Assembly: GCF_964204865.1 (NCBI RefSeq) | Contig: NC_135254.1 | Location: forward strand, 21,446,199-21,510,198 | Reading direction: 5' to 3' | DNA: 64,000 nucleotides | Source: Styela clava | Taxonomy: Eukaryota | Shown: in pieces, positions 4,613 to 29,693 of the stretch | Numbering within the stretch: position 1 is the first letter of the stretch | How the letters are laid out: every line of letters starts with the position of its first letter | Made by a program: the position numbers and the translations under genes | The notes under the pieces: generated by a model | What the model saw: only the letters and a program-made list of their open reading frames with translations | Database searches by the model: none | What the model was told of the DNA's origin: nothing

Positions 4613-6466
4613 GTACCAGGCTTGCAAATCTACGCGAGTACGCGAGTCATACTCTAGTCTAGACTCGCGTATTTTGCCCTACCCGAGTCTAGCTATTACT
4701 CCCGTAAAAAACGTCATTACTCGCGTCCAGCAGTACACGAGAGTCCGAGGCGATTTTTTCCGCCGCCTCTCGCTCTTTATTCTTTAGTGACGTAAAATCG
4801 TTTGCGGGCGATGGTTTATGATGTCACAATAGTACATTAGAGCGAAAAGCGAGGAATCAAGCACGGGCACGCCTCCGGACGACTTGGCGTTGGCGAATGC
4901 AGAATGTTCCCTTGTAATAAGGCAGACTGCGAATGCGTATTATGAATTTAATAGAAGTGTTGCAGACTAACAAAGATGAGATGTCGGTAAGATTAGGGCT
5001 AGTGTAATTAATTAGTTATATTAACGGCTGTTTTGTTGTAAATTACCGGTAAAAGGGTATCTTTGCGTAACATCGTTTTTTTTTTGTTTAAAAATACCAC
5101 AGGAGATATTATAAATTGTATGATTAGAGTAAATGGAGGAAAAATCAAGGTCCGTCTCTGTAGCGGCCTGGAGGTTTTGGCCAAACAGATTAAAGGACAG
5201 TTTTACGTTCGGTTTCAACGAAGATAATATCAAAGTCGTACATGCAGCATGCATTGTATGCAAAAAACATTGTGACAGAATACAGCGCGGCTATGGAGGC
5301 AAAGTTGTTAATGATGTGACGACTTGCGGGGAGAATGGCACCAACTGGGATCTAAGATATAATTTAGAACGACACCTCAATTCCGAGGGCCACTTAAAGT
5401 GTGTCGAAATTGAGAATGGGAAGCTCCCGACGCAAACAAGTATCGCTCGCTTATGGGGCTGCCAAAAACAGAGGGCGGAGAACGCCATAAAACCTCTTGT
5501 TCGTACTGCACTGTATGTCTCTAGGAAGGAACAGTTTGAAGACGGGGCCATTCGAGAAAATCTGGTCAACAAGGCTTCCGCCCGATTTATGGGAAGCGAT
5601 GGGACGTCTGAACGAGGTCTCGTGAAACGACGTATAAATTCAATTTTAGGGGGGTTGGAAACAGCAAAGCCCAGCTTGGTACAGCCTCAACTAATAAACA
5701 TCGACGATAGCTCGTCGGAAGAAGACTAAAACTGTGATATGTGAACCTGAAAGCGTCTCACGCATTTCTTTGTTCGTGACACAATTTCTAACCTTTCTTT
5801 TTATACATTTTAAATGATGCGAAGTCGACGGGCGGCGGGCGATTAGCGTTTAATATTCAATTTCGTTCTTTCTGTGCGATGTTTACTTTGCATGAACTCA
5901 TCTGCTACATGCGAACTTATTTTATAGATTTCAGTTTGTACGGCAAATGTCAGACTGCATGAATGGTTTTGTTTATTAAAAAAAAAAAAGCAGGCGATGG
6001 CAACGGCGACTGCCGTTTATTAAAGTTCCTCCCTTTATTGTGCAAAACTTGAGGTATTATTTTCTTTGTAGGGTAACATGTTGAGAGTTATTCACAGTCC
6101 ACAGTTTGCAGCAAAACCTGCAAAATGGTTGACCCCGATTTATAATTAGGTCATTTACGTCGTGCGGGGAAAACGGCGTCGCAGAGCACGCAGCTATCTT
6201 GATTAGTATTTAATGAGACGCTCGCAAGTAGCAATATCGCAGAACGAGGGTACCGACGGAGTAGTGTTTATCGAGCGAAAGTAGGTGTGTAGATAGTGTG
6301 TGCGTAGATATATTTAGACACATTGACTCGCGCCTGACTCGCATAGCATTTTCCTGGGACGGGAGTATATGTGACGTCACTATGACGTCATTGAATCTTT
6401 CGAATTCCGTTAGGAGGTCGACGAGAGTATGCCTAGACTCTCGTTTTCGGGCGCGGATTTGCAAGC
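4613..6466 (+). mobile_element. Roughly 1.85 kb TIR element carrying a single BED-zinc-finger ORF (non-autonomous hAT-like derivative?)
   Basis: Termini CAGGCTTGCAAATC (4613-4626) and GATTTGCAAGCCTG (6453-6466) are perfect 14-bp inverted repeats, followed by diverged but related subterminal sequence (CATACTCT, CTAGACTC motifs). Flanking TTGTAC on both sides (4607-4612 and 6467-6472) is a possible short TSD. Confidence 0.6.
5133..5729 (+). CDS. 198-aa BED-type zinc-finger protein with an acidic C-terminal tail and no transposase catalytic domain
   Basis: Intact ORF. Residues ~10-95 fit the BED finger signature (WRFW...F, then CIVCKKHC, then NLERHLNSEGHLKC: aromatic W/F, Cx2C, then H-x-x-x-x-H/C). 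The C-terminus is DDSSSEED. The ORF lies wholly inside the 4613-6466 TIR element. Confidence 0.6.
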   Translation: MEEKSRSVSVAAWRFWPNRLKDSFTFGFNEDNIKVVHAACIVCKKHCDRIQRGYGGKVVNDVTTCGENGTNWDLRYNLERHLNSEGHLKCVEIENGKLPTQTSIARLWGCQKQRAENAIKPLVRTALYVSRKEQFEDGAIRENLVNKASARFMGSDGTSERGLVKRRINSILGGLETAKPSLVQPQLINIDDSSSEED

Positions 6467-6552
6467 CTGTTGTACTGTAATTATCAAAATGGGTTTAGCG
6501 CTATGAACAGCGAGAGTAAAATTATCTAAATGCAGCAATTTCATGCCATATA

Positions 6553-7096
6553 GCAGGGGTCGGGAACCTTTTTGGTCAAGAGAGCCATAAAATATACATA
6601 TTTTCAATTGCATTTCCGTGCGAGCCATATAACATTTCTTCACTTAATCAGGCCTGAAATGTTTCCTCAAAAGTCAACACATACAATGTCAATATACATT
6701 TAATGAGATTTCTGATGCTGCATGTAGTCGCTGCGGGCCTTGAACGGTTGCTCACTTGCAGCCCAAGTTGAAATCTACGGTACTCATCACCCTTTTTCGT
6801 TTAGGCATCTCCGTAGTGTTTTTTAAACTCTATCGCTTTGTGATGTCACAATATATGTTCCAGAATCCCCTTGTTTGTCACAATGCCTGTCTGGGATTAT
6901 CTTACATATCATAGACATGTGCTGGGCGCGCGTTCTCAAACGTATTGGGAATTTTCTGCCAAAATTGGCTATAAAAGTGTTTGAAATTTCGTAACAATAG
7001 TAAGCTTAGTCTTAGAATATTAGATTTTTCTGGGAGCCATATGCCGTCACCAAAAGAGCCATATATGGCTCGCGAGCCATGGGTTCCCGACCCCTG
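6553..7096. mobile_element. hAT-type MITE, about 545 bp
   Basis: TIR CAGGGGTCGGGAACC at 6553; its inverse GGTTCCCGACCCCTG ends at 7096. Same TIR family as the MITEs at 33893, 50228 and 50831. Confidence 0.6.
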
Positions 7097-7530
7097 TGGC
7101 ATGGGGCTCGGCATGCAAATCCCATCTCAAAACAATATCTGTTCTTCAAAACCGTGCCCTGAGATTGATGACTGGTGCTCGTTCTAGACAGAGTTTGGGA
7201 CCAATTTATAAAAAAATGAACATCCTTAAACTTGAGGATGTGTATAAACTTGAAGTGGCGAAAGTCATGTTCCAGTTCAAATTCGGTATGCTGCCCATTG
7301 CTTTTAACAATTATTTTACCAGTTGCAGCAATGTCCATAGTTATAACACCCGTTCAGCTGGCAGAGGCTCTTATTTTGTTAGAAGGACAAACTCCACCCT
7401 GGTGCAAAAATCTATAAAAATTGCTGGCCCAAACATATGGAATAACATTCCAAATTTGATCAAAGAATCTTCGTATAATAGTTTTAAGAGTAAATTCATG
7501 AGGCATCTCATTGATAAGTACTGAAGGTAT
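7096..7530 (+). mobile_element. 3' tail of a non-LTR (CR1/L2- or RTE-like) retrotransposon ORF2, followed by its satellite tail
   Basis: The 142-aa ORF ...ILKLEDVYKLEVAKVMFQFKFGMLPIAFNNYF...HSYNTRS...YFVRRTNSTLVQKSIKIAGPNIWNNIPNLIKESSYNSFKSKFMRHLIDKY has the character of a LINE ORF2 C-terminal region. A homologous degenerate copy lies at 14280-14560. Confidence 0.45.
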
Positions 7531-7559: not shown

Positions 7560-9400
7560 GTATCCTAGCATATATAAATTACTATTATGTTTTTTATGTT
7601 TATCCATATTTATATATTGAGTACTATTTGTGTATCTGCAATAACTGCCATCTAATTTTGAGGCAAACCCTTGCTGATTTAAATAATAGTTTATTCTCCA
7701 TATTTATATAATGAGTACTATTTCTGTATTTGCAAAAATTGCCATCTAATTTTGAGGCAAACCAAACCCTTGGTGACTCAAATATTAATTTATTTATCCA
7801 TATTTATATATCGAATACTTTTGTGTATTTGCAATTACTATCATCCAATTTTGGGCAAACCCTCATTTACTCATATTTATATATTGAGTACTATTTGTGT
7901 ATCTGCAATAACTGCCATCTAATTTTGAGGCAAACCCTTGCTGATTTAAATAATAGTTTATTCTCCATATTTATATAATGAGTACTATTTCTGTATTTGC
8001 AAAAATTGCCATCTAATTTTGAGGCAAACCAAACCCTTGGTGACTCAAATATTAATTTATTTATCCATATTTATATATCGAATACTTTTGTGTATTTGCA
8101 ATTACTATCATCCAATTTTGGGCAAACCCTCATTTACTCATATTTATATATTGAGTACTATTTGTGTATTTGCTAAAATTGCCATCTAATTTTGAGGCAA
8201 ACCCTTGCTGATTCAAATAATAGTTTATTCATCCATAGGCTATTTATATTATGAGCACCATTGGTGCCCTTGCAATCTAATCTAAACTGCCATCTAATTT
8301 TGAGCCTAACCCTTGCTGATTTAAATAATAGTTTATTTTTCCACATTTATATATTGAGTACTATTTGTGTATCTGCAATAACTGCCATCTAATTTTGAGC
8401 CTAACCCTTGCTGATTCAAATAATAGTTTATTTCTTCATATTTATATATTAAGTACTATTTGTGTATCTGCAATAACTGCCATCTAATTTTGAAGCTAAC
8501 CCTTGCTGATTCAAATAATAGTTTATTTATCCTATTTATATTTTGAGTACTGTTTTATGTATTCGCCAAAACTGCCATTTAATTTTGAGGCAAATCCTTG
8601 CTGATTCAAATTATAGTATATTTCTCCGTACTTATATACTGAATACTATTTGCGTATTTGCAATAACTGCCATCTAATATTGGGTCAAACCCTTGCTGAT
8701 TCAAATTATAGTTCATTTATCCATATTTATATATTGAATACTATTTGTGTATTCGCAATGACTGCCATCTAATTTTGGGGCTAACGCTTGCTAAGTCAAA
8801 TAATAGTCTATTTATCCATGTTTATATATTGAATCCTATTTGTGGATTCGCAATAACTGCCATCTAATATTGGGGCAAACCCTTGCTGATTCAAATTATA
8901 GTTCATTTATCCATATTTATATATTGAATACTATTTGTGTATTCGCAATGACTGCCATCTAATTTTGGGGCTAACGCTTGCTGAGTCAAATAATAGTTTA
9001 TTTATCCATATTTATATATTTAATACTTTTTGTGTATTCGCAATAACTGCCATCTAATTTTGGGGCAAACTCTTGCTAAGTCAAATAATAGTTTATTTAT
9101 CCATATTTATATATTGAATACTATTTGTGTATTCGTAATAACTGCCATCTAATTTTGGGGTAAACCCTTGCTAAGTCAAATAATAGTTTATTTATTCATA
9201 TTTATATATTGAATACTATTTGTGTATCTGCAATAACTGCCATCTAATTTTGAGGCAAACCCTTGCTGATTCAAATAATAGTTTATTTATTCATATTTAT
9301 ATTATGAGAACCATTGGTGTATTTGCAATAACTGCCATCTAATTTTGAGGCTGAACCCTTGCCATATTCTTTATATTGAGGTCTATTTTGTGCATTTGAG
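7560..9400. repeat. Tandem satellite, roughly 95-bp unit, about 19 copies, with higher-order (~270 bp) variant structure at the 5' end
   Basis: CTGCCATCTAATTTTGAGGCAAACCCTTGCTGATTCAAATAATAGTTTATTTATCCATATTTATATATTGAGTACTATTTGTGTATTTGCAATAA recurs with period about 95 (8287, 8382 and 8477). The first about 700 bp alternate three sub-variants. The array starts immediately after the LINE tail at 7096-7530. Confidence 0.85.
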
Positions 9401-10957
9401 AGGCTGACCCTCTCTATTTCAAATAATGTTTATTTATCCAAATTTCCACTCGATATTGAGATTACCAAAATTGTTTCACATTTTGGGTATATAATAGTTT
9501 ATAAATTGGTACTTATATATGTATTTGTGGGTATTAGTCACCCATCTGGCTAAATTCTTTCTTGTTATAAGGCTGATTCCACTCTTTATACAATTGTTTC
9601 CCAATATTATATTCACATGACTATGAGTACCATTTTGTTTATCTCCAGAAACTTATTTTTATATGTGAGGCTTACCGCTTACTCACTCAAACAATTGTTA
9701 TGTGTCCAACATTACATTTGAGTGTAGTAGTCCAATAGCCAAATTTGTTTTTTATTCATGGGACTTAGACCTCGCTTTCAAATAATAGTCTGTGTAATAG
9801 TTGATTATTCGTTCAAACTGTTTCATTTCTCAAAGACAAATCTTATCTTTTAAAAATTTACTTTGCTAAAATAATTATATTTTTTTTGTTCAATTTGTAT
9901 AACGCGCCTCAGCCCTTCTCTTATTTTCTCATTTTGTTTTTAATCATCACATGTCGATGGCTATTGAAATTTGTAGCCCAATTGCAGGCAATTTAGGTAA
10001 ATTAGATAACAACATCACATGTAATATCAAAACTATAAATAGCATCCCGATCCCGCTTACATATATTTTCCAAATATGTATCCATGACGAATGCTTGTAA
10101 TATCCTTACCTGACCCCTTCATAAATTATTCTCCCAGTCCAAAATGAATGCAATATTTCTTCAAATGAAAAATAGTAATGGGCTTCTTAGTTGCATCATA
10201 CCACATTTATTTTGTTTTTTATAACTTTTCTGTATTACCATGTTTATTCAAATTGTTTGTTTGTATATATAGATGTTAACACGAACAATTGCTTAGTCCA
10301 TTTTTTTGTTTTGTTCGTTTTTTTTTTTTTTTTTTTCAAATTTTGTTTCATGAATTTTAACCACTTCAAATAGTCATATTTTACTGTGAACTTATCAGCG
10401 TAAACTTGGAGGGAGCTGACTCCGATGACCGCATGGTCGTATCGCTCCTTCCAGTCTATACCGAAAAAAGTGTATTTTTTGTTACCATTATTTATTGTTA
10501 TGACTGTTGTTTTTTTTCTGGTTGACGAAAATAAATCTCTCTCTCTCTCTCTCTCCCTGCCATATAGCCTAGGGAAAGTTGACCCTACTCTTCGTATCTT
10601 TACTCCAGTTCTATTAAAACGTACTTTAGCGGAGTAAACCTCAATCTGAACCTATTTTTATAGGTCAGTAAGCACACAATAGATTGTAATGCCAAATATT
10701 CGCATATTGCACAATGCCAAATAATGTAAGTTGCAATGTAAGTGGAAATTAAATATGTCATCAACTTTTTCGCTTAAAACGTTGCGTGAAAATATATATA
10801 TTAAAAGAAAATGAAATCGACCTTGTTTGAGACAAATAACACACACAATTACGAATAAGGGGTTAAAAGCATTGAAATACACAGTACCATCCTTTTGTAC
10901 TCGCTACATCGTCATTACACAAAATGGTAGAAAGAATTGCTATTTTTCAATTATTAC

Positions 10958-11345
10958 TTATCGATTTTAATCGGTAAGTATGTTGATAGGTATTTGTCTG
11001 TATGTTTGTCTGTTAGATTCACGCGATATCTCACGAAAGCGAGATTGAATCTGCTCCAGATTTTGCATGTGCATTAATCTTATCTCGAACCAGAAGCCTA
11101 TTGATTTTGGGCGAATTATGTCGTATAATTAGCGAGTTATCAATCAATTATTGATATAGTGATCTAGATTTTTGTAAAGTGAGAGAATTTTGAGACCCGC
11201 CGAGTGCGTGTGTGTGCGATGCGCAGTGTGCAAGTTACAAGAGCGGATGAATCGAAACTGCAGTTTCTGTTTCGGGGGATCCCCTAACTATCGATCGATA
11301 AGTCTTCGGTTTCCAACCGATATTCTCGTTTTCAGGGACAAGACT
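10958..11345 (+). repeat. Dispersed repeat (SINE/MITE-like), copy A
   Basis: About 90% identical over about 380 bp to the reverse complement of 29275-29760. It contains a degenerate (GTCT)n tract and palindromic CTTATCGAT...ATCGATCGATAAG ends. Confidence 0.7.
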
Positions 11346-12639
11346 CCAGATGCTAGGAGAATTTTTACCTCATTTTCTGAACTTACTCTTATAATACATT
11401 GTTTGTCCTTTTCTGTCCAATGCTTTTTATTAAATAACTTGTTCCGTGTATAATCTCTGTTTTTTAATTAGACTTTAGCCCAATCAATCAACGATTCATG
11501 TTCAGTAAAGTTTTCATCATTGTTAGTTTTCGAAACAAGACAGGTAAATGATGCAATAAAGTTTATGAATGTAGTGCTTCTGCTTCAAACAACTTCATTG
11601 CTATGGTTCTTAACAAGAACAATATGATTTAACTTATCTATACTACTTATCACATTTTTAGAGACTAGTTATCACATTCTCACCGAAATTTGCATCAGCG
11701 AAGTACATGTCATGATTTATTTAGAGTAGACAGAGATACTCTCGTATAGACGCATAATATTTACAATTCAAAAAGTGTTCAGGTAGTTGCTACTGTGCTA
11801 CATGATCAATCGATTTGCTGGAGCCGCTTGCAACGGTAAAGTTGAGATATTAGCTGAAAATTCAGGTTCACTGTTACATTTTAGGAGATTCGTGTTTACA
11901 TTACTAAATATGCAATATTATAATTTTGATCCGCTTAAGTTATGTCAATTCGAAATTTAAAATCGTTTGGTGTTATTCATGCCGGAGGCTTGAATTTGTG
12001 CACCACACTTTGGTATGCTATTTTACGTGTTTGTTCCGCACTGCTAGCTTTACTCATCACTTTTCTTATCGCTGTGTATGACTTTTCAGCAGTTCATTCA
12101 ACCTCGCATAACATATGAGTAATGTGAATAGCAATATAGTTAAGACAGAGGATAAGCACAGAATTTAGGTTTGTCCAAACATAAATTTGTGATTTAAAAT
12201 TTGGTTCGATTAACAAATGAATTTTGTGTATTTGGAGTGACATCGTGTAGATATTTCATACTGAGCAAAAAAATTTTGTGTCACGTACTTCAGAGTTAAA
12301 TATCGCATGCTATAGACGTTGTGAAGACAGATTATTACCTATTCAATACGAAAAACCTCTTTTCTTGCGTCAGGAGTTTCAAATATTCTTGCCGAAACAG
12401 TGGTCGAGATATATTGTTTGAAAACATGTTTTCAAGAAAACTGGTACGAATTTAATAAATATTCTAGCCAAGATGTTTTCGACGTTGGGAGAAACGTTTG
12501 TTTCTCAATATGTGTCATCATAATGAATCCTCGCGATGCGCACTTTTGCAATGGCCGAGTCGCCAGTATGAGTTTTGCCTTCACTAACGTGTGAAATGAA
12601 ATACCTACTGAATCCTATAGTGGTGGTAACATAAAAGTC

Positions 12640-12930
12640 ATATTGGGGATGGCAGAATAGGGATGGCAAAATACGGTCGAAAGGTGGCAGATTAGGGATG
12701 GCAAAATAGGGTCGAAAAGTCATATTGGGGATGGCGAAATGCGGTCGAAGCGTGGCAGATTAGGGATGGCGAAATGCGGTCGAATGGTGGCAGATTAGGG
12801 ATGGCAAAATGCGGTCGAAGCGTGCTGGCAGATTAGGGATGGCAAAATGCGGTCGAAGCGTAGTGGCAGATTAGGGATGGCAAAATGCGGTCGAATTGTG
12901 GTGGCAGATTAGGGATGGCGACGTTTGAGA
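12640..12930 (+). repeat. Subterminal minisatellite, about 45-bp unit, about 7 copies (left arm)
   Basis: Direct tandem repeats of GGTGGCAGATTAGGGATGGCAAAATGCGGTCGAAGCGT with length variants (41-47 bp). Confidence 0.85.
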
Positions 12931-13849
12931 AAGTGAAGGGCATGGTGTCAGTGTTACCGTACCGTATACCGGTACCGTACGAACATTTTAAGGTTCTTAA
13001 GTTTAGCATGTAGCCTGAATGTATCTGCATATGCCAGAGTTACCAGACTTGGACTTTTAATTACTATGGTAACGGTAGACTACCGTATCATCGGACTACC
13101 GGTATGCCTTCGCGGTAGAATTATTGTGTGGCAAGATGTAGGCACGAACACGGTATGTCAAATTGGGACTGGTACCGGTACCGTACCGTACCAGTAACAT
13201 TGCAGCATTGTGTGGAGCAAGCGATAAACTAAAAAGTGAAACTGCTAAAGACATTTGACTGTTTGAGTGAACTCCGCAGACCTAAGCAAAATGTTAATAT
13301 GCATTCTAACTATTTGATACCGGTATATTTAATTGCTGAATTGTCTAACTTCAAATTAGCAGTGGTGTGGCTCATCGTGCTAAGCCTGTAAGCGGAATAA
13401 GCTTGGCATCGCACCTCTTATTACTTACACTATGTCAGTCTGTGTAGGTTCGCAGGTTTAAATGTGGAGATCGTTAGGAATACGCTCGTCACCCCATGGT
13501 TATGTGCGAGAGGATTACTGGACTCCTCGTCGCAGTTGGGTGGTTCACATAACCGCTGGTCGGTTACAGCTTCCTCCACCATCTGGTCCATTATCTCTCT
13601 CCTGGGATAGATATGTAGATCCTATCGTTAATCCGAGCGAGACACATATCATGTTAATTAACTGTAGTAAAAGCCCCGAACTTCCAATTCCATTATAAAA
13701 TTTTATCGTAAATGACATTAAGTCTATAATGACTACTTGAAACTCTGTCAAGTATTTTGATATAATTTCAGATATGAAGATTAAGGTTATCTAGTCTTTA
13801 GGGATATTGCTGCAATGACTGAAGTGAGTCTATTTGTGCCAGAAAGGGG

Positions 13850-14560
13850 ATCAAGAACTTTATAGTTTGCACTTTCAACAAGAGAGCGATGCTCAAATAT
13901 ATGGACACGCAGCCTGAGCGAAGCAGTAGTCCAGCTTACCTTTGACGGTTCGCTAAACACTAGAAGCACCAATGTTCGCTGACCTCGTGACTCGCTCGCA
14001 CGATGAACCACCACATGGTGGCAATTTTTGATGAGGTCATAGCACAAAAGAAATGAATTCCATGCAGCTCTCAGAAATATTGGAAATATATGAAAGTAAT
14101 AGCCTTCAGGCAAATCAATCTTAAACCATTGAAAATTTCAAAGCAATTCGTCCAGTAATCAACAAGAAAAGCGGTTTTTCAATATGTGTCAAAGAACAAC
14201 AACATAATAACAAAATGATCCATATGTCCACTACATGCCCACAAATGAATTGTGACATGGGACTTACTCCAAAACTATTTTTGTACTTCAAAACTGTGTT
14301 TTGAAGTTGATGACCGGCTCACATACTCTACTGTGTATTGGTTCAATCTGCAAATATTCTGAAACTTGAGAATGTTCAGTTCAGATTTGGTATCATTGCT
14401 GATCATTGCTTGGGACAATTCATTAAAAAGAGATAATAATCGTTCAGCTGATAAAGGTTCCTATTTTGTTATAGTAACTTTACCCTGGTACAAAAATGTA
14501 TTGAAGATACTTTCTAACACAATAGCTTCGTGTAGTATTTCACTAGTTCTTTGAATATGA
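13850..14560. repeat. SINE-like dispersed repeat copy plus a degenerate LINE 3' tail
   Basis: 13850-14240 is homologous to 25020-25200, 27700-28100 and 28090-28470 (GAGCGATGCTCAAATATATGGACACGCA...; ...AATAGCCTT..AGCGA.AAATACAATC...). 14280-14560 matches the LINE tail at 7140-7530 (ILKLE..VQF.FG...). Confidence 0.45.
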
Positions 14561-17180
14561 TTATGTTCAAATTTCATAAAGGAACCATTCTAATATAGTA
14601 ATATTTAATATTTATTCAGCATTTTAGCTTATAAGGCAAATGTTAAATGAGAAATTAGACCTAAACTTGTTATTTGTAAAGGGCATATAAAACATTAAAC
14701 TTTAGTGTATGTTTGCTAATCCATATGTTAGTAAGAGTTGTTTATTTGCCATAATTGCTTCTATTAAAATAATTTTCCTATTTTTGTTAATGTAACTTGG
14801 ATCAATCATAAAAATCACTCTCATTGTTAATCTTGTTTTATAGTTTATTTATTGCTACTGTTTTTTATGCAAACTGTATTCCAATTGTTGCATCCAAGGT
14901 TATCCATCCAGCTAATCTAAACATTTTTATGACAGATCAACTTTTTCATAGATTTCACCTAATAGCACATAGTCAGCCCTATAGTTATCATTTTATTTAC
15001 ACAAACATTTGAAAGAGTGCATTCTCCTGGTCTGATCCTTTACTTCCACAAATATTTTATCATTTCGACTTGCTACTAGTATGCAATCTCACTTACTTTT
15101 GTGATTTCCATTTTCGTGTCTTGAAGACATTCTCATAAAATTCAGTTCCTAACCCTACCTAAAATCCCTGAGATCACACAATCGCTGAGATTGAATACCT
15201 TTATATGTTTAATAGGTGCTCCCGTGTGTGCATCCCGTCCCAGCATGTGCACCAAGATGGCACACAGCCTGAACATATTATGTGTACCAGATTAGGGTTA
15301 TCAGGTTGTACGCCATCTCAGTGCACATACTACGGAAGCGTCGTTTAATAACCTAATAGCTCTATTTGTGCTACTGTTCAAATTAATGTCACTGACTTCA
15401 ACTTGTGTACACAAATTCCAAATATTTATTTTTTTCTTCTAATAACGTGCAACATACTAAATTGTATTTGTTTGAGATTACATTTTTCCAAGATACAGAA
15501 ATATGTTTTAATTTGCTTTCAGTATTTTTTGCCAATTATTAAACACTATTTATGGGGACTGTAGCATTTGTGTACACGATATTATATTCTTTGTCTAGTG
15601 CTTGTTTGTTTTGAAGTCAATCAATAAGATCTGATTTTCATTCATGAATCATAACCACTTTGTACTAATGCATTGTCTGCAATCCTAAAATAACAATTTC
15701 TCTGCTACTACTCCATACTGTGTTATTTTGTTCTTGTTATAAGATAAACTTGTTATTTATGTGGGTGGGTGCATATGCTGTTATATATCTTCTATAATGA
15801 AGTTCCTGATTACTTTCTGTAGCAATAGTTTTCAGTGTGTAATCTTGAAATCTTGCAGTGAAAATATGTCTTCCCCCAGATAATGTCCTAGCATTTACTA
15901 AGTCCTTTGGTTAAGTTCATGTTTTAATATGCCAAACTATGCATGGAAACACATGTAATTGTGTGACAACATTTCGAATCAATATGATATACTGGTGTTA
16001 TATGCTTTCATTAATATAAAATATTGTAAATTAATTTCTCAATAATGTAATAATTTTTTATTGGCTGGATATCCCAATTTTTGTGTTCACATTTTGAACC
16101 TTACTGTAAATGATGTAGGATTTCCCATTTTGCATTTCTACCCGATATCTTTACAGCATCATGTCATCTCAAATTATGTGCTTCATGTTATCTCAAATGT
16201 CATCTCTTTATTTCCGTTTACAACTTCTTTCTTGCGCGCATGTATGAATAAACATGCATGGTTCACTAACATTTGCATGTTTTCTCATGAATGTCCTGCT
16301 TGTAATTTTCTTAAAAGCTTCTTAAATATACTCTCACTCTCATGTCAGTACGCTTTCGTTTCTATAATATAAAGCTTTCAAAATCATATCATATTACATG
16401 AGCCAACTTTAGTGTTGCTCAATTTTGAAATGATTGATGATAATGATTTTTTTAAACCTACTTAGTGACAACAACTAGACCATTATAGTTATTTTTGATG
16501 CCTTATACCTTACTTTGAGTCATTCACCATTTACATATCTTAAGTAACCAATGCCATTACCTCAAATTTGAAAATACCATAAAACCTACGATCTCTGGTC
16601 GTTCTTAGAGCATCGATTCACGGGCCTTTCAAACTCTCTGGTCATTTAGTTCAGGGACATTTTATTCATCCCTACATATATACCGTTCAATATGTTTTAA
16701 TGTTAGTCTAGTCTTGGAAAGTTTTGAGATTGTTTTTATCGTGGAAAACTGAATAAAATGAAATAAAGAGGCCTCCTCATTCACTGTTTTTATCGTGGAA
16801 AAATGAAATGAAGAGTTTCTAACGCCTCTTCAATCACGTAGTCGTTAGGGGGTTGTGATTAGAGTGGTAGTGACTTCAACATGGCAGAAAGCCAATCTAA
16901 AAATGCAATTCTCATACAGTGAAATCCCGTTTCAAAGCTCTTTTGAAACCATGGGGAATATTTACCGTAGCGTTGGAACATATTTCGGTTATTAGTATTA
17001 CACAAATTACATAAAATCGAGTACAAGATATTACCTTAGTCTTTCAACTTCAAAGATTATGAGTCTCATGGAAAAATTGCGGCAGCGGGTTTCTCTTCAA
17101 TTAAATACCTACGAGTGGCCAATACCGAATAGTTCACTGTTTCAAATACATTTGAAGTTCAAAAAACGCTTATCTATAAT

Positions 17181-18825
17181 TAGGGCTGGGGAAAATATTC
17201 GAATAGCGAATCGAATATTAAATTATTCGAATGGCATTTTACTATTCGAATATCGGGTACCACGTGATCTGCGTCGCTTCCCTTGGACACGGAACGTCTG
17301 TGAACCGATCGTGAATTGCGCGAGAATTCACCTACAAGCTCGCTCGCTAACAGACAAATTTGAAAAATCGTTTTTGCGTTGTGGTGTTATTTGTTTTCTT
17401 TGCGTTTCGATCGTTCATTTCAATTCCCTATGTTGCACAAAGAGGTACCGACACCGTTCCCTAAATTTAGAAACGTTAAATCAGATGAGGTATTCAAAAT
17501 AAATATTCCAGATTTTAAACTCCGTATGATTGGCGGCACGTGATTAGCCGTTTCATGAATGAACCAAACATAAATTTGTTTAACGAAAATTAAAAGTTGA
17601 ATTAACTTTTGCGTGGAACCATATATACATAGCATAACACGAACAAGCTATGACCAGAAAAGAAATGGCAGGACATAGTTCTTTTAATGTACTTTCAAAT
17701 AATTCTTTAGTGATCCCTTTCATTCTTGACCAAATAATGTTTCGAAAGTGTAAACATTTCACTCGGGCATGCATGGCGGGTGGAGTGTAGAAATCGTGAA
17801 CAGGAGTATGGCGTAAAATCAATCGTGAATTTCGATGTAACAACGCGCACTGTCTCGTTTACGAATTGTTGTATCGTCGGAAATGATTACATTCGTTATA
17901 TTTTTGAGCATTTTTGCACTAATAAATAGGGCGTGACATTGTCAAAATTGTCAAGAGAAGTAAAGGTGAATTCGCGAATTCCGTAAATAAAATTGTGAAT
18001 TACTCGGTAACGATATTAGCTATAATGACCGCGCGGTTTGTTGAAAGAAAACGTCGGAACTTGGAAGAGTTAGTTATAAATAGCGCCTGGCCGTCTATTA
18101 GGCACAAAAGTACAAAAGCGCAATTTTTTCAGCATTTGGTCGCATATGCAAATTATTATTTAGGAAGCGCTGTTTATTAACGTCATCTCGTCATATGGCC
18201 ACGCAGAAATGCCTTTATTGCCGAATTATTTAGTCACTATTTTAAATCAACATTCGGGATTGACGCAATCGCAGCTCTGCGAGGTTTATCTGTAACGTAA
18301 CATAACCACCATAGAAAAGCATAGCAAAGTTAATTACGGTATTGTCTTAATAAATATCTGCATCCCGGTATCGATAATAATATCACCGTTCGCTTAATAT
18401 TGTGACGGTAAATTTACAAACGTTGATAAGTAATATGAAAGCTAACGCAAATGATAAAAATTAGAATAATATTAATTTGGGTTTTTACATCAATCCTTAA
18501 TGGTTTTAACAGTTGTTGCCGACGTGAACGCACGGGTAAACCCGAAATATAAACGTCGATGTCCGCCGACGCGAAAGAATTAATACTTGCAAATAACAGA
18601 AAGGGTCACGGTGACAAAAACAATCATGATTATGACGAAATTAACCAGTAAAAAACGCTTTGTAGCCGGTTTTCAATGTCTTTATTAATTTTCAAAGGGA
18701 GTATCGACCGACGTTGTAGACCTCCTGTTGTGTATAAAAAATATTCGTTATTCGACTATTCGGTATTCGTTAAAATATTCGAACTATTCGATTCAAAAAA
18801 AAATATTCGATTTTGCCCACCCCTA
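17181..18825. mobile_element. Non-autonomous hAT-like element (~1.65 kb) with an 8-bp TSD, nested in the 12616-23347 element
   Basis: TIR TAGGGCTGGGGAAAATATTCGAATA at 17181; its inverse TATTCGATTTTGCCCACCCCTA ends at 18825. Subterminal TTCGAATA motifs at both ends. Flanking direct repeats TCTATAAT (17173-17180) and TCTATGAT (18826-18833), 7/8 match. Confidence 0.7.
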
Positions 18826-19109
18826 TCTATGATATGCGAAGGAATTTGCATGCAATAAACAAAGGAATAACTGGCTATATTACCAGGCATTTCATATTCA
18901 CAGATTACTGCGATATATATTTTAGAATAGTAACGCTTTTATTATTTTATAAGTCGACGTAATCATGAGTTAGTTACGTTAACAGATTTAAATTAATATG
19001 GCAAGGCATTTGAAATAGTGGTATCGGTCATGGATTTGAATATTTGGCGCAACACAAAATCATCCTGGTAAAAAGTTCATACTTTCAAATACCAACCATT
19101 ATTCAAATT

Positions 19110-19900
19110 ATTTGCCAAAAAGCGGGATAAAGTATAAATTATTTTTCCGACCTGGGACAATTTTTCCAAGAGTCCTAAAATACGAATCAAAAATTAATTA
19201 TGTTCAGGCACTTTACCACACATTTAAAGCCCACAAATTGCCGTTGTATTTTGGAGTAATAATACTTTTATTATTTTGTGAATACGAAAAAACGAATCAG
19301 CAATTAATTATATTCGGGCACTTTACCACACATTTTGAGCCCACAAATGGCCGTTGTATTTTGGAGTAATAATACTTTTATTATTTTGTGAATACGAAAA
19401 AACGACTCAGCAATTAATTATATTCGGGCACTTTACCACACATTTTAAGCCCACAAATTGCCGTTGTATTTTGGAGTAATAATACTTTTATTATTTTGTG
19501 AATACGAAAATACGAATCAGCAATTAATTATATTCGGGCACTTTACCACACATTTTAAGCCCACAAATTGCCGTTGTATTTTGGAGTAATAATACTTTTA
19601 TTATTTTGTGAATACGAAAATACGAATCAGCAATTAATTATATTCGGGCAATTTACCACACATTTTTGGCCACAAATTGCCGTTGTATTTTGGAGTAATA
19701 ATGTTTTTATTATTTTGTGAATACAAATCAGAAATTAATTATATTCGGGCACCTTGCCACACATTTTAAGTCCACAAATTCCAGTAGATTTCAAAGTAAT
19801 AATACTTTTATTATTCAGTAAATCCGAAAATAGGAATCAAAAATGAATAATAATCGGGCAGTTCACTACACATTTTATGCTCACAAATTGTCGTCGCAAC
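19110..19900. repeat. Tandem repeat, 112-bp unit, about 7 copies
   Basis: CCGTTGTATTTTGGAGTAATAATACTTTTATTATTTTGTGAATACGAAAA recurs at 19241, 19353, 19465 and 19577 (period 112). Outer copies are degenerate. Confidence 0.85.
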
Positions 19901-20029
19901 CATAAGTTACGTTAATAAACAAAACTAAATTAATAACGCATAATAATTTTATATGCTGGTATCGGTCATGGATATGAATAATTTGCACAACAGAAAATCA
20001 TCCCAGTAAAAAGTCGAAACTTTCAAAGG

Positions 20030-20270
20030 TGCTCCCAAAGTATGCGAACCAAGATGGCGGACATCGGAACGTAACATGGGTAACAGGTTAGGGTTAGGCG
20101 ATAATTTTTTTCCAATTTTTCTTATTTTAGTCCTATTATCAGTTCGAAGACTAGCCAAGAGCCTCCCGTAGTATTTATACCTAAAATTATGGCCTAACCC
20201 TAACCCAGTACACATATTACATTCCGAGCTCCGCCATCTTGGTTCGCATACTTCGGGAGCCCCCTTTCAA
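20030..20270. mobile_element. Palindromic MITE, about 240 bp
   Basis: GGTGCTCCCAAAGTATGCGAACCAAGATGGCGGACATCGGAACG at 20030 pairs with its inverse ...CGGAGCTCCGCCATCTTGGTTCGCATACTTCGGGAGCCCC at 20220-20270. Related half-sites occur at 15230-15340 and 22075-22140. Confidence 0.6.
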
Positions 20271-22399
20271 ATATCATTATCAAAATTATTTGCCATAAAG
20301 CGGGAAAAAGTATTAATTATTTCCTCTAATAAATCGACTTGTTTTCCGACTTGCGACAATTTATTGGGTATCATAAAAATTACGACATTGAATAATCTTC
20401 AATTTCTTGACGTAATGGAAATGAATGTGTAAAATCGTTTGAAGATTCCCGCAAAAACGAAAAACCGTGTTTACGATGAAAAGAGACTATATATTATTCG
20501 AAAATCAGCCGAAAATGTATTCGAATATTTGATTCGTTTTGGACAACCCTGTCTACGAACCACAGTCTTCTTTTCTACAATACAACAATAGTTTTCGTCC
20601 CAATTCTTTAAAAAGGTTCGCCATTCCTGCTAGACTAACCCATCAAATTGCGTGTTCCCTGACTACTACATGAAACATTAGCGTTTTCTGACCATCAAAT
20701 GTTTGAGATTGTTTTGTAAAGTTCAAAAACAATTAGGTTGAAAATTTTCAGTTGCAGATTAGTAGTAATTTGACTCCAGTGTAAATGTCGAATATTCAGG
20801 GAAGTATTTCACTGGCTTTATTTCGCTAAATGTCCGTACAATTATAGAGACCCTGCTCAGCGCAGAATGTTTTCAAAACATTTCGCCTATAAGTTTTTGA
20901 AAGTATAATTTCATTTGATTTCAATTGAAAATCTAGAAAGGCTTTTTGTATCTTATACTCACCAGAACAAATATTACAATCATTAGATATGAATATTGAA
21001 CGTATTACTAGCTCAAAATTAATCCCTCATCAAACGCATTTGAACGTGAAATAACGGTGCACGAAACTACGCCAGTTATAAGCACCATTAAATATTAAAC
21101 AATGCGGATATATATAGCACCAAGGTCTAATCCACCCTATTCCAAACAGCACGAAAAATTCGTCGCAAATGCGTCTTTCCTTGGAATTCAATTGCAACAA
21201 AGAACAAGACTTGCGTTACACGTAACACATTAATTTATAAGTTGCTCCTTCGCTATCCAGTAAGACATGGGTTGGATTCTGTACCAAGTAATGGTAATTA
21301 TGTTCCTCAAGAAGTAAAGCATGCAAGAAGATTCCTAAAAAGTCAAACTAGTCTTCGACATTTTCTTTCTGAAAAACGATAAAATGGATGACTTTGGTGG
21401 TTCCCAACATTTTGTGTTGAAATCTTCTATTAGTTGGTTTTTGAACTGTTTATACCAAAATCCCTATGTTTAATTACCTTGCCTTTTGTAGTATCTTTTC
21501 CAGTGTTATACAAAAGTCGCATTTTCATTTTTACGCAGTTCAAATAGTTTGTCGCGTTTTCATGAATAATATTATACAAAAGTGAGTAATACTACAATGT
21601 ATATTCCTATTCAAAGACTCTCCTCTAGATAGGAATTCACTCAATATCATAAAAATCATTTTATAGCATAATATATCGAACACATCTTTACATCAAAAGG
21701 TTATATTCAAATGATAAAACCAATTAACTTCGAAAGAAATTTTGAGAATTGAAATTAACGAAACACGGAGAATGAACTCTTCATGCAGTGTGATCGTGAA
21801 TTATGCCAAAAATATTTTAAAGCAAAACAGGATTCTTCTACATATATACTTGAGCAATTTGAAATATTTGTAATTGTAAAGAATTGTTTAATAACAGTAT
21901 TTGGAATATAAATATCGCAGGCTTCGGGGTGGCGTAAAAAATTGTAGCGACTATAATACCAGGGAAAAATTGGAATTTCCATGACGAAAGAGATAAAACA
22001 TATGACCTCATAAATGATGGCACGATCCAGAATGCTATGCCAGCCAATGCAGACCTCTTGAAATATGCGCAACAAGCTGGCGCACAACCTCAGGTTAGGG
22101 TTCAGGTTGTGCGACATCTTGGTGCGCATACTTCAGGAGTACCCAAAACTTGATGAGAGAAACGTAATAATATATCAAACATTAAAAGATTGTATTAAAA
22201 TTATTAATCAGAAAAATATGAAAAAAATGTTCAAGACTTGATGAGAAAAATGTAATAATATATAAAACATTAAAATTAATCATAAAATAAAGACACGATG
22301 AAAAATCGGACAATACCTTTTAAATGAATTTTAAAATGTGAAACACTGATCAGATTAATTCCTTAAATTTGACAATGTTCGTTTCCAAATCTGACACGC

Positions 22400-23310
22400 A
22401 TTTCGCCATCCTTAACATGACACCCGTCAACCCACTGCCCTATTTTGCCCTCCCTAATCTGACACGCATCGACCATATTTCATCATCTCTAACCTGACAG
22501 GAATCGACCCTATTTCGCCACCCCCAATTTGACACGCTTCGTCCGCATTTTGCCATCCCTAATCTGCCACGCTTCGACCGTATTTTGCCATCCCTAACCT
22601 GCCACGCTAAGACCGTATTTCGCCATCCCTAATCTGCCACCACGCTTCGACCGCATTTTGCCATCCCTAATCTGCCACCACGCTTCGACCGCATTTTGCC
22701 ATCCCTAATCTGCCACCACGCTTCGACCGCATTTTGTCATCCCTAATCTGCCACGCTTCGACCGCATTTCGCCATCCCTAATCTGCCACCACGCTTCGAC
22801 CACATTTTGCCATCCCTAATCTGCCACCACGCTTCGACCGCATTTTGCCATCCCTAATCTGCCACGCTTCGACCGCATTTCGCCATCCCTAATCTGCCAC
22901 GGTTCGACCCCATTCCGCCATCCCATTTTGACACTCATCGACTGTGTTTTGCCAGCCCGAATTTGACAGGTACTAATCCATTTCATCAGCCCCAAATCTA
23001 AACACTTTGGCCATATTTCTTTGTAATTTCGAGGCAATTGTTAATTGTTATTTGTATACTAAACAGCGCATTATGACAGTCGATTTGGCAAAAACTGACA
23101 CCCATCGACCGCATTTTGCCATCCCTAATCTGCCACCACGCTTCGACCGCATTTTGCCATCCCTAATCTGCCACCATTCGACCGTATTTCGCCATCCCTA
23201 ATCTGCCACGCTTCGACCGCATTTTGCCATCCCCAATTTGGCCTTTCGTCCCTATTTTGCCATCCCTAATCTGCCACCTTTCGACCGTATTTCGCCATCC
23301 CTATTTTGCC
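22400..23310 (-). repeat. Subterminal minisatellite, about 45-bp unit, about 20 copies (right arm; reverse complement of the 12640-12930 array)
   Basis: Tandem CCATCCCTAATCTGCCACCACGCTTCGACCGCATTTTG units. Inner copies (22380-22560) are progressively degenerate. Confidence 0.85.
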
Positions 23311-23522
23311 ATCCCCAATATGACTTTTATGCTACCAACCCTCCTCACTGAATCCTTGCGATTAAAATATTACACGGCTACTGTGCAACAGAGGGCACCA
23401 TTTTCCATGCAAATTGTTTTTCACATTGAAAATAGTGTTTGTCGTACGTTTATGTTTCTCAACTTCTGTTTAAAGTGTAGTATCAATTATATACTTTTTC
23501 ATTGTGTCGGGAAGGTATTGAT

Positions 23523-23759
23523 ATGAAGACATTTTTTTATTTGACAATTATATTCTTGCTACTTCGCCTGCAATACAAATACGCGTTTTGCCAGCGCAAT
23601 GTAATATCCACCGAAGAAAACAGTTACACAGTGTGCCAGAATTTCAAAGGAATTTTTGATCCGAGCAAGCAGAACCTGCATAGTAAAGTAGTTCAAGGAA
23701 TTCCTGGTAAACGAGGACCTAAGGGTGACAAAGGATCACTCGGCAATATAGAAGAATCT
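23523..23759 (+). CDS. Collectin-like gene exon 1: signal peptide, short collagen-like Gly-X-Y stretch and neck
   Basis: MKTFFYLTIIFLLLRLQ is a hydrophobic signal; GIPGKRGPKGDKGSLG is a Gly-X-Y repeat. The donor is uncertain: GAATCT|GTAATA at 23759 gives phase 0, compatible with exon 2. Alternative donors exist. Confidence 0.4.
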
Positions 23760-24290
23760 GTAATAGTGCAAAATTTGTCCGAAGAATTGAAAACCTTCAA
23801 AAGTGAGAAGCTAATTTTTGCAATTACTTAGTGTTTTTAATATCACAGAAAAAGAAATAAAAAGTGGACTTTTTCGTAGCGGTGGCCGATATTTTTATGG
23901 TCCATATGATTTATCTCGCAACGTGTTTTTAAATATACCATTCAATGCTTAAAAAAGATAGTAATCTTGAAATCCGTCTTATGTAAAAATTAAAACCTCT
24001 AACAGAGGACTACACTATCAATTGCACAACATTTGCAGATAAAACACTATATCATTTGAAAAAAGAGTTTATAGAGATTTTTTTCTTAAAAATCAACGAT
24101 TAAGCAATGTCTTTGTCATGTTTGTGTGGCAATATTTTGAAGAGTTATACAAGTTTCAGTTGCAAGCAGAAAAGGCGGATTATTAAAACAAAAAATATTC
24201 TATTACGTATTTAGAATTTCCAGAGTCGTATATAGAGATAGACCAATACCATAATAGAATTTATATTAAATTGGTCAAACTTATTTTTAA

Positions 24291-24515
24291 GACTGTGATG
24301 GACTGTATCGCGCCGGAATTTGCTACTTTTTGTTAGAAGAGAAAGTCAGCTACGAAAATGCTGTCAGCAAGTGTGAATTACACGGTGGACATTTGGCATC
24401 AATTACTAGTCGTCAGTTGTATGGTGCTCTTTTCAGATTTGTGTACGATGGTTTTGTGCTTTGGCAGTCAAGTACATACGCACAGTTTTGGATTGACGGA
24501 ACCTATTCAAATGCA
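24291..24515 (+). CDS. Collectin-like gene exon 2: N-terminal half of a C-type lectin domain
   Basis: Acceptor TTTTTAAG|GAC. Encodes DCDGLYRAGICYFLLEEKVSYENAVSKCELHGGHLASITSRQLYGALFRFVYDGFVLWQSSTYAQFWIDGTYSNA (the C..CY.F....W..A...C...GG.LASI.S..E..F signature). Donor GCA|GTAAGT. Confidence 0.7.
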
Positions 24516-25361
24516 GTAAGTTTTGGTTCCACGTATACATGCTTTGTGGGCATTATTCACGCAGTATTATTATTTAGCAAAATGCGTAGATTATGGGCCA
24601 CTTATACAAGTTACACACTCGCATTACGTTTTTCTCAAATCTCACATTTTTTGCATTAGTAGCAGCATTGGCGGGGTCTTTGTAAAAAAAAACAGATTTT
24701 GTACTACTAACAACTTGTTACCTGGGCCAACATCATTCAAGTTTGGGTAACTTATTCGAAGTGCACTTTATACAGGTCGTGCACTTAGCATATGATGCAG
24801 ATGTTTGAGTGGGTTTACTACTGCACGTGATTGAGGATGGAATCAATAAATTGTAAAAAAAAAAAAATTATAAGTATGAACACCAAGCAGGATACAATTT
24901 GTGCAGATAGTAAAAGTTTTGTAAGTGATACACAAATTATCTGTATCAATTTTCAAAAAGTCATGACACAAAATTTAGAATTGAAAAACGGATCACATGA
25001 ATCCCACAAAATTTTTTGAAAAAAAATAATATTAATAGCCTTATAGCGAGAAATACAATCATTGATCATTGCAAATTTCGAGGTAATTGATCCAGTAGTT
25101 GACGAGAAAAGCGATTTTTTATACGTTAAAAGTAAATACCAACAAGAAGAATAACATAATAACAAAAGGATCCATAGGTCAACTTCATGTTCAATATATA
25201 GAAGTATATATATGGGTATTCTACAAAATAAAATTGCCCAGGCTAGCTTTGGTATAGTTATTATATATGTGATGCAGCTGTTTGTCAATGAAAAACAATA
25301 ATATTAGATATCGTGAGACAACTTGAGTCTCTTTTTCACATTATATTATTGGTATTTACAG

Positions 25362-25547
25362 AATGGTCTCGTTACTCTGAGAGACACCAACAAATCTCCG
25401 TATATCTTGTGGTATCCAGGATACCCACGACCCACGGAGGGTCATGTTTATATGGCATTTGAAGTGAAGAAGTCTTTCAGCGGAAACCAGAATATGTTCA
25501 ACATTAACCCGGCTCATCGGATATATTCTCTATGCCAGAAATCATAA
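25362..25547 (+). CDS. Collectin-like gene exon 3: C-terminal half of the CTLD, ending at the stop codon
   Basis: Acceptor ATTTACAG|AAT, phase 0. Encodes NGLVTLRDTNKSPYILWYPGYPRPTEGHVYMAFEVKKSFSGNQNMFNINPAHRIYSLCQKS*. There is no canonical EPN/QPD or WND motif, so this may be a non-Ca-binding lectin domain. Confidence 0.6.
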   Translation, partial: NGLVTLRDTNKSPYILWYPGYPRPTEGHVYMAFEVKKSFSGNQNMFNINPAHRIYSLCQKS

Positions 25548-27682: not shown

Positions 27683-29274
27683 CTGAAATTGAAATTGTTG
27701 AATTAAAAAATCAAGAGATCGATGCTCAAATATATGGACACGCAAACCAAAACGAAGTAGTACAGATTATCAGATTTGGCACCGTAGTCTATTGTAATCC
27801 ATAAAAAATATTTCGACTTTCGTTAGGCACGAGATCCGCCGACTATCGCTGAGCACAAGATACGCGGGCGCGGAACCAATGCAATTAATTTTCAATTTAG
27901 TTGAGGTCACCACACAAAACATTAGAATTTAGATTTTAGATAGACAAACGAATCCCACGGAGCCTACAGAAAATTTTGAAAACAATAAAAGTAATAGCTT
28001 TGTAGCGAAAAATACAATCTTCAACCAATGAAAATACCAAAGCAATTGGTTCATTAATAAATGCGAAAAGCGAGTTTGTTACACGGTAACGACAAGAACA
28101 TGAGAGCGATGCTCGAACATATGGGAACGGAGACCAAATGGAGCCGCTCGAGAGAGGTCGCAGAACCGCTAAAAATAATTTTTCTTATTTTGAATAGGTC
28201 ACAACACGAAATTCCGAGTGAAAAATTAATCACATAAGGGCAACAGAAATTTTGGAAATAAATAAAAATAATAGTCTTCTAGCGAAAAATGCAATCTTTA
28301 GCCACTGAAAACTTCATAACAATTGGTCAAGTAGTCAATGAGAAACGCGATCTTTTCAAAACAACAAGTAGTGAAATACCAACAACAGCAACATAAAACC
28401 AAAACGTTCAATATGTTATGCTTCGTGTCCAACAACAACAACATAATAATAACAAAACGATTCATATGTACACTTCCTGTCTAATAAGGGCACGAAAAAG
28501 AATTCCAACAACAATGTAATATTAAAACGATCAATCGGCCAATAATAACCAAACGATCCGTATATATGTAGGCTACATTTCGTGTCAACAACTATGGCAT
28601 TATTATCCGATGAAACAATTAATGTCTATCCAAATAAGAATACCTCCGAATATATAAAATTTAGTATCGGTGAGATTATTTACAATAAATTTAAGCAAAG
28701 TACCCGTTCAGCAGGTTATCCAGAGTAGTTGAAAGTGATGTTCGAACTTAGACCCAATTTATCACGTTTTAAAAACTAATGACTATTCTCGTTGGACACG
28801 AAATGGATCGATCTGCTAAATTTTTGTTGTTATTAGTCCTATTGGAATTGCTAGAGGTATTTTAATTTTATTATTATTTTGTGTGGGGGAGGCCAGGGTT
28901 ACTGGCGATGTACTGAAATAAAAGTACTCAAAGTCTCTTTTCTCCGAAACGACTGTGCCAATTTCAATTTTCAGTACTTGATGATGAGACCAAAATAGCC
29001 ACGCCATATGATTAACACTATTTATAAAAAACAATTCGGAGATCTCCTACAATGAAATGATTGATATGAGGATGGGGATTAATAACAATAATACCAGGAC
29101 GCCTAGTATTGTGGTATAAAAACAGAAAGAGAGCTGATTATATAATGATTGACTCTAATTGACGAACAAATGGTGATTTCGGAATTAATTGGTTATTATG
29201 GAAAAAAATTCTTTTTTGAATATTCACATTTTATAATCAACCACAAAAAATCTAAACTCATTTCTTTTTGCTTT

Positions 29275-29662: not shown

Positions 29663-29693
<31 letters not shown>

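Follow-up and report, generated by a model that had tools for sequence, protein, structure and literature searches.

What is the 10.7-kb block of non-coding DNA that ends about 170 bp upstream of the ATG of a collectin-like gene in the tunicate Styela clava, and how did it come to be there? The block occupies positions 12616-23347 of the 64,000-nucleotide stretch of contig NC_135254.1 that was analysed here, which is referred to below as the window, and which is eukaryotic and AT-rich (35.8% G+C). We conclude that the block is probably one insertion of a foldback-type, non-autonomous cut-and-paste transposon (class II, with terminal inverted repeats, TIRs), with a probability of roughly 0.7. 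The grounds for this are a target-site duplication (TSD), a long inverted repeat, flanks that are unrelated to each other, and the lack of coding capacity; on the same grounds the single transposition event proposed in a preliminary description of the sequence is upheld. That description also suggested a new family. The architecture, however, is one long known from the foldback class (FB, Galileo, Tetris, TU) rather than a new kind: each end has a unique terminal domain and, inside it, an outer domain of tandem repeats, the middle is heterogeneous and non-coding, and the flanking duplication is 8-9 bp long.

Limits of the element and target-site duplication

The sequence CTGAATCC is present as an exact direct repeat on both sides of the element (Table 1). 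These are the identical 8-bp repeats described previously, except that the identity extends one base further on each side, giving CTGAATCCT (to 12616 and to 23356). The likelihood of such a repeat arising by chance was estimated using 400,000 simulated random position pairs drawn from the window, of which 0.17% (a frequency of about 0.0017) had an exact 8-mer direct repeat no more than 6 nt from both ends of the inverted repeat. A duplication of 8 or 9 bp, CTGAATCC(T), is within the range seen for the foldback element Tetris (8-10 bp). Among the transposase superfamilies, hAT elements have an 8-bp TSD, and here the 8-bp repeat is exact, yet the identity reaches 9 bp; the 9-bp reading is compatible with the 9-11 bp of Mutator/FB, and the 8-bp reading with the 7-8 bp of the P superfamily.

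In a BLAST search of the window, the homology of the arms did not run on beyond the ends of the element, and the flanks are unrelated; this answers the possibility, raised in the preliminary description, that the arrays belong to a larger segmental inverted duplication. The reconstructed pre-insertion sequence, used as a query, matched only itself in the window, and thus revealed no paralogous empty site there.

Structure of the inverted arms

Each arm of the element starts with a terminal flanking domain of about 30 bp, which within the window is present solely at the left end and, inverted, at the right end. This is followed by tandem arrays, whose inverted orientation had been recognized before. 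There are 10 + strand copies of the motif G[GT]G[AG]TGGC[AG] in the left arm and 24 - strand copies in the right arm, and two further hits in the rest of the 64 kb. The period of the arrays is not the 45 bp originally given: Tandem Repeats Finder (TRF) reports 35-36 bp with super-periods of 73 and 111, and parsing the arrays unit by unit resolves these into units of 35 and 38 bp. Each unit in the left array bears TTAGGGATGGC(A/G)AAAT and GTGGTGGCAGA, and the 35-bp unit contains the motifs GGGATGGCA and GTGGTGGCA. The motif G(G/T)G(A/G)TGGCA, strictly polarised by strand, is present twice in every unit, once within TAGGGATGGCAAAAT.

From the tip towards the interior, the unit lengths are 14, 35, 33, 35, 35 and 38 in both arms, so that the variant units of 14 and 33 bp are located near the tips. 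The outer ~245 bp of the two arms are collinear unit by unit and 94-96% complementary. In place of the imperfect TIR of about 28 bp reported earlier there is a much longer in-register repeat, which by BLAST comprises 233 bp at 95.7% (compare Table 1). The total arm lengths are ~320 bp (left) and ~950 bp (right), and the right arm is compound, consisting of an outer array, a 165-bp spacer and an inner array. Long TIRs of this sort, made of tandem repeats (here of 35/38 bp) and capped by a separate terminal domain (here of 30 bp), are characteristic of foldback elements.

The 25-nt core of the unit is confined to the two arms within the window, and as an exact pattern it had no match in JGI metagenome contigs (two patterns) or in viral contigs. 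When the 111-bp super-period was translated on both strands and searched in protein space, there were 56 word candidates, none of them significant. A literature search on the unit and TIR strings gave one irrelevant hit.

The hexamer TTAGGG, which is the chordate telomeric repeat, is found once in each array unit (12646-12935 and 22400-23317), within GATTAGGGATGG. It is probably coincidental: the chance is about 2% for a 35-bp unit, yet the hexamer recurs in every unit.

Structure of the interior

The interior (12936-22399, 9.4 kb) contains no open reading frame (ORF) longer than 147 aa, in keeping with the limit of about 150 aa given previously. All stop-to-stop ORFs of at least 30 aa in six frames were searched against Pfam, and no domain was found at E <= 1. 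A tblastn search, using the hAT ORFs of the window and their database relatives, found no remnant of a transposase in the interior below E = 0.04. There are no tRNAs or Rfam families in the window, so an origin from structured RNA or tRNA is rejected. Exact look-ups of ORFs from within the element, across its left end, and from the first exon of the adjacent gene matched no record, and the same was true of the Styela hAT protein.

What the interior does contain is a mosaic of other repeats, as in the variable non-coding middle domain of foldback elements. Recognisable secondary repeat DNA makes up at least ~4 kb of the 9.4 kb, and several of the repeats were inserted independently. The element was therefore probably much shorter on arrival, and the very large size noted in the preliminary description is not supported as an original property.

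The clearest case of independent insertion is the palindromic miniature inverted-repeat transposable element (MITE) at 20028-20263, which is confirmed here. It lies in a block composed of a ~190-bp segment, a satellite, and a second copy of the segment, which is ~80% identical to the first and is split by the MITE. The first copy is uninterrupted, and the window therefore holds both the filled and the empty site of this MITE, the paralogous empty site being at 19082-19089, 938 bp upstream. The arms of the MITE (~93 nt, 83% complementary) contain the telomere-like sequences GGTTAGGGTTAGG / CCTAACCCTAACC. It has relatives at 49675-49892 and 61787-62006, both inside the hemicentin-like gene described below, and fragments at 15242-15343 and 22055-22139. 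The satellite in the same block was expected from the earlier description and is indeed present, with a period of 110 rather than 112 bp.

The nested hAT-type MITE at 17181-18825 is also as described previously, with its own TSD, which matches at 7 of 8 positions (TCTATAAT at 17173-17180 and TCTATGAT at 18826-18833). The palindrome cluster that had been placed at 12940-13200 is instead a 257-bp MITE-like segment. Only its short tips and GGTACC-rich subtermini are inverted, it has a fold z of -1.8 and is thus no strong palindrome, and its flanks carry an imperfect repeat, CATGGTGT / CATTGTGT, with an offset of 2-3 nt. The retrotransposon relic listed in Table 1 was also found by tblastn with the ORF at 7096-7524, which matched 14271-14470 with E = 1e-6.

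Table 1. Coordinates of the foldback-type element, its component parts, the repeats within it, and the main features around it (numbering of the window).
Feature	Position	Strand	Details
Left TSD copy	12608-12615	.	CTGAATCC, read in the sequence; identity runs on to 12616 (T)
Right TSD copy	23348-23355	.	CTGAATCC, read in the sequence; identity runs on to 23356 (T)
Left terminal (flanking) domain	12616-12645	+	TATAGTGGTGGTAACATAAAAGTCATATTG; unique sequence with a degenerate copy of the motif GTGGTGG(T/C)A
Right terminal (flanking) domain	23318-23347	-	Reverse complement is TGAGGAGGGTTGGTAGCATAAAAGTCATAT
Left arm of in-register long TIR	12619-12861	+	Partner 23100-23342; 243 nt, 94% complementary
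Left arm array	12646-12935	+	~9 units of 35/38 bp plus 14- and 33-bp variants; from TRF, unit parse and motif polarity
Right arm, inner array	22400-22925	-	~15 units; edges degenerate, centre homogeneous (35/38 bp, 111-bp super-period)
Right arm, spacer	22926-23089	-	Two degenerate units, ~80 bp of non-repeat sequence, and a short unit fragment (~23072-23088) whose opposite orientation was read from the sequence
Right arm, outer array	23090-23317	-	Collinear with left arm unit by unit
MITE-like insert at inner edge of left arm	12949-13205	.	257 bp; tips CAGTGTTAC / CAATGTTAC, GGTACC-rich subtermini
Non-LTR retrotransposon (LINE) 3' relic	13879-14501	+	DNA similarity to 7128-7415, 24986-25228 and 27712-28479
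Nested non-autonomous hAT-type element (MITE)	17181-18825	.	TAGGG... TIRs TAGGGCTGGGGAAAAT / TAGGGGTGGGCAAAAT
Duplicated-segment and satellite block	18953-20322	.	~190-bp segment at 18953-19144; 110-bp satellite x 6.6 at 19177-19894; second segment copy at 19890-20322
Palindromic MITE	20028-20263	.	236 bp; TSD CTTTCAAA (20020-20027 / 20264-20271)
Dispersed-repeat fragment	20431-20550	.	Second occurrence at 55786-55912
hAT element with transposase	463-3464 (3.0 kb)		TIR CAGTGGCGGCGCG..., right tip CCACTT; exact 8-bp TSD GTGGTTGG (455-462 / 3465-3472)
Collectin-like gene	23523-25544	+	Exon 1 from 23523: signal peptide, short collagen-like G-X-Y run, neck
Sushi-repeat exons	~26.7-27.7 kb	-	Host-gene exons
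Hemicentin-like gene	47.1 kb to window end		VWA and Ig domains

Proposed mechanism and putative partner transposase

The repeated motifs in the array units would serve a transposase, encoded at some other place in the genome, as multiple binding sites. Such sites would let the transposase, supplied in trans, recognize and synapse both ends of the element, excise it, and insert it at a staggered cut, the repair of which would produce the CTGAATCC(T) duplication. The 9.4-kb middle domain is non-coding filler, several of its repeats having demonstrably been inserted independently. The element is probably no longer mobile.

The partner transposase is most likely a hAT-superfamily enzyme, although we would put this at only about even odds. 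Every unit holds TAGGGATGGCAAAAT, which is a hAT-type end motif (TAGGGATGG...), and whose first 8 nt are the start of the TIR of maize Ac, C/TAGGGATGAAA. Aligned with the terminal 16 nt of the nested hAT-type MITE, TAGGGATGGCAAAAT matches at 14/15 positions with one gap, starting from the first base of the MITE, and the local score of this match was attained by 0.36% of random 60-mers from the window. The motif runs from tip to interior in both arms, as expected of a real end. All internal units contain the sequence TAGGG, and 2-4 nt inside the tips there are TAGTG / GAGGG. The motifs are reiterated and polar, and are candidates for subterminal transposase-binding repeats of the hAT kind. The suggestion in the preliminary description that the element is hAT-like is supported by the 8-bp reading of the TSD and by TAGGGATGGCAAAAT in the units, but not by the tips, which depart from the hAT rule YARNG, nor by the possible 9-bp TSD, nor by the termini of the transposase-bearing hAT element in the window, which are unrelated. 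It is plausible but unproven.

A more specific suggestion, which is tentative and which we regard as rather unlikely, is that the foldback element is itself of hAT descent, its arms having formed when a complete hAT end (the TIR and the subterminal sequence next to it) was reiterated head to tail. An arm would in that case be a ladder of ~9-24 alternative ends, all correctly oriented for a hAT transposase. We know of no description of foldback architecture in the hAT superfamily.

The window contains one hAT element that carries a transposase (463-3464), and its termini were compared with those of the foldback element. The comparison was restricted to the window, in which this is the sole transposase-bearing hAT. 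Its termini have no significant similarity to the array unit or to the tips, the only shared sequence being AGTGG.GG just inside the foldback tip, and it was rejected as the autonomous partner; this counts against a hAT enzyme. The transposase gene is frameshifted into three ORFs (877-2942, - strand), with DUF4371 and Dimer_Tnp_hAT domains, and the protein is 93% identical to XP_077969971.1, annotated as 'zinc finger MYM-type protein 1-like [Styela clava]'.

Mutator/FB-type and P/Galileo-type enzymes are possible partners and share most of the remaining likelihood. The element would be of the same kind, and would have been moved either by a Mutator/Foldback transposase, with CTGAATCCT as a 9-bp TSD, or by a P/Galileo-like transposase, with an 8-bp TSD and a THAP domain that reads ...TGGCA. 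We consider this explanation possible but less likely than a hAT partner. The core recognized by THAP domains is GGCA, and there are descriptions of P-like elements from Ciona. The tips of the element break the YARNG rule, and the direct repeat is identical across 9 bp, although the ninth matching base would be coincidental with a chance of ~30%. Galileo, a member of the P superfamily, is built in the same way and has THAP sites in its TIR repeats. According to the paper describing Tetris, Mutator is the superfamily of most foldback elements (Tetris itself having TSDs of 8-10 bp), and TSD length is the main clue to the superfamily where there is no known transposase. Against a non-hAT partner are the presence of TAGGGATGGCAAAAT, a hAT-type end, in every unit, and the failure to find any MULE (Mutator-like element), THAP or P-transposase domain in the scanned ORFs, the scan beyond the element covering part of the window.

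Evidence against a single foldback insertion, and other explanations

Several features do not sit easily with one clean insertion of a foldback-type element mobilised by a hAT enzyme. The length of the TSD is ambiguous and could be 8 or 9 bp. The homology of the arms does not end exactly at the direct repeats, as had been thought: the last 3 nt at the left tip (TAT) and the last 5 nt at the right tip (TGAGG when reverse-complemented) are unpaired. This is unusual, because the tips are normally the best conserved part of a transposon. The tips, TATAG and TGAGG, are each one mismatch away from YARNG as well as being mutually unpaired. The right arm is compound, and its spacer and inverted unit fragment imply a history beyond that of one clean arm. 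There is a single copy available, the collections searched having yielded no second copy, empty allele or autonomous partner, so that mobility rests on one TSD. Finally, the duplicated segment in the middle domain is ~80% identical between its copies, compared to ~95% for the arms, and this mismatch clashes with the idea of a short element that was filled later, unless the arms were homogenised by gene conversion or the block came in as one repeat that had already formed.

The last of these points leads to an alternative in which the arms captured ~9 kb of repeat-rich DNA and moved it as a 10.7-kb unit, in the manner of a macrotransposon or composite element, making the interior cargo. We regard this as possible but not probable. 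Besides the divergence of the two segment copies (18953-19144 and 19890-20322), which exceeds that of the arms, the TSD of the nested hAT MITE has one mismatch while that of the whole element is perfect, and unrelated filler is common in Ds2/Ds-like elements and in foldback middle domains. Inverted arms can however be homogenised by gene conversion, so that arm identity is a poor clock, and one mismatch in 8 bp is a tiny count. In addition, longer elements transpose less efficiently, and several of the interior repeats were demonstrably inserted in place, one of them with a paralogous empty site.

It is also conceivable, although improbable, that there were two events on the right side, such that the outer right array (23090-23347) is the true partner of the left arm and the inner array (22400-22925) is a remnant of a second copy, either older or rearranged. 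This would account for the 165-bp spacer between the right arrays, with its degenerate units and its fragment in opposite orientation, and for the degeneracy of both edges of the inner array, which resembles that of an independent array. But 12752-12921, the stretch of inner units in the left arm, pairs with the inner right array at 96% complementarity, and the spacer shows no TSD or terminal domain of its own. Moreover, unequal arms are usual in foldback elements.

That the block is not a transposon at all, but a local inverted duplication of a minisatellite whose flanking 8-mer arose by chance or by microhomology-mediated rearrangement, would fit the single known locus, the non-complementary tips and the lack of a transposase, but it is very improbable given the ~0.0017 chance of the direct repeat, the end of homology 3-5 nt from the direct repeat on both sides with unrelated flanks, the unique terminal domain common to both ends, and a polarity and architecture that fit a known transposon class.

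Neighbouring genes and repeats

The collectin-like gene begins just beyond the right end of the element, which therefore separates the gene from its former upstream sequence. An ORF at 24291-24656 has a weak match to the C-type lectin domain that is below threshold (17.9 bits, cut-off 22.6). The database search with the hemicentin-like gene gave distant hits only. According to the S. clava genome paper, the genome is 46.7% repeats, the largest class being DNA elements, and complement and lectin genes are expanded. The window fits this picture, in both its repeats and its lectin gene.

Four further features of the window were noted. A 337-bp inverted pair with 96% identity, plus 65 bp at 92%, is found at 10951-11331 / 29335-29747, its members 18 kb apart. 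The pair brackets the foldback element and the collectin-like gene, and there is an (ACAG)n microsatellite at 29651-29701 near the second copy; the pair is probably two copies of another young dispersed repeat. A non-LTR retrotransposon is represented by its C-terminal ORF at 7096-7524, and directly after this comes a tandem array with a 95-bp period and ~16-19 copies (7599-9362). Together these look like a long interspersed nuclear element (LINE) with a satellite-like 3' tail, and diverged relics of the same group are present at 13879-14501, 24986-25228 and 27712-28479. The + strand at 5133-5729 contains an ATG-initiated ORF of 198 aa, which has Cys/His-rich stretches and an acidic serine-rich tail but is without a Pfam match. 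It is flanked by inverted repeats (4605-4646 / 6440-6481; 42 nt, 71%), and may be part of another uncharacterised mobile element. Lastly, 50831-51782 (~950 bp) is a candidate hAT-type MITE with termini (C/A)AGGGGTGGGCAACCT; the flanking sequence CCTATAG is offset by 3 nt, and its TSD is ambiguous.

Significance

A foldback-type insertion accounts for the non-coding block next to the collectin-like gene. It also serves as a dissected case of such an element from a tunicate, in a genome whose repeats have been annotated generically; the S. clava genome paper gives them as RepeatModeler classes only. In Drosophila, long inverted arms of the foldback kind are known to serve as substrates for ectopic recombination and for inversions.

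If the hAT affiliation is true, it would mean that the foldback architecture had one more independent origin, it would support the repeated evolution of long repetitive TIRs from ordinary transposons by transposase loss and elongation of the ends, and it would offer a natural array of candidate transposase-binding sites. If the element is moreover of hAT descent, the foldback architecture would exist in the hAT superfamily, and in a tunicate, and its alternative ends could yield nested transposable units, breakage or inversions beside an immune-lectin gene. The element does not challenge the current understanding of DNA transposons.

Comparison with known systems

The closest overall likeness is in structure, to FB and to Tetris from D. 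virilis. In both of these, the long TIRs are made up of a terminal flanking domain and an outer domain of tandem repeats, and surround a variable non-coding middle, most copies being without an ORF; the TSD of Tetris is 8-10 bp. The sequences are unrelated, the host here is a tunicate, and the unit carries a hAT-type motif, whereas FB and Tetris are assigned to Mutator. The unit of Tetris is ~220 bp, compared to 35/38 bp here. FB has units of 10/20/31 bp. The TU elements have long inverted ends with short tandem repeats and a heterogeneous middle. They form a deuterostome foldback family, from the sea urchin Strongylocentrotus purpuratus, which is cited in the Tetris paper and is likened here by its description. 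The same paper notes that foldback structures may arise independently in different superfamilies, via loss of the transposase and elongation of the TIRs.

Galileo, from the P superfamily in Drosophila, also has long, internally repetitive TIRs and many non-autonomous copies. It differs in having a known transposase, of THAP plus P type, and much longer repeats; no P-type protein was found here. Its TSD is 7 bp. Galileo is the best tested model for the putative role of the arrays in the S. clava element. Its THAP domain has been shown experimentally to bind to sites inside the TIR repeats, and the multiple sites are proposed to give specificity and to offset the penalty of length.

Among hAT elements, Ac/Ds of maize, together with Ds2 and Ds-like elements, resembles the S. 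clava element in the end motif TAGGGATG... and in the unrelated filler of the interior. Its TSD is 8 bp, which the S. clava element would share on the shorter reading of its duplication. It is mobilised in trans, as is proposed here, and has several subterminal repeats, no more than ~200 bp from either end, to which the transposase binds, a role for which the array units are candidates. The Ac transposase binds cooperatively to subterminal AAACGG hexamers within this distance, and in Hermes several BED domains bind to the subterminal repeats. In contrast, hAT elements have short TIRs (11-20 bp) and short, dispersed subterminal motifs, where the S. clava element has a TIR of ~245 bp arranged head to tail and in register. 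The hAT-like motif is here placed inside every unit instead of at the tip, and the tips themselves miss YARNG by one base.

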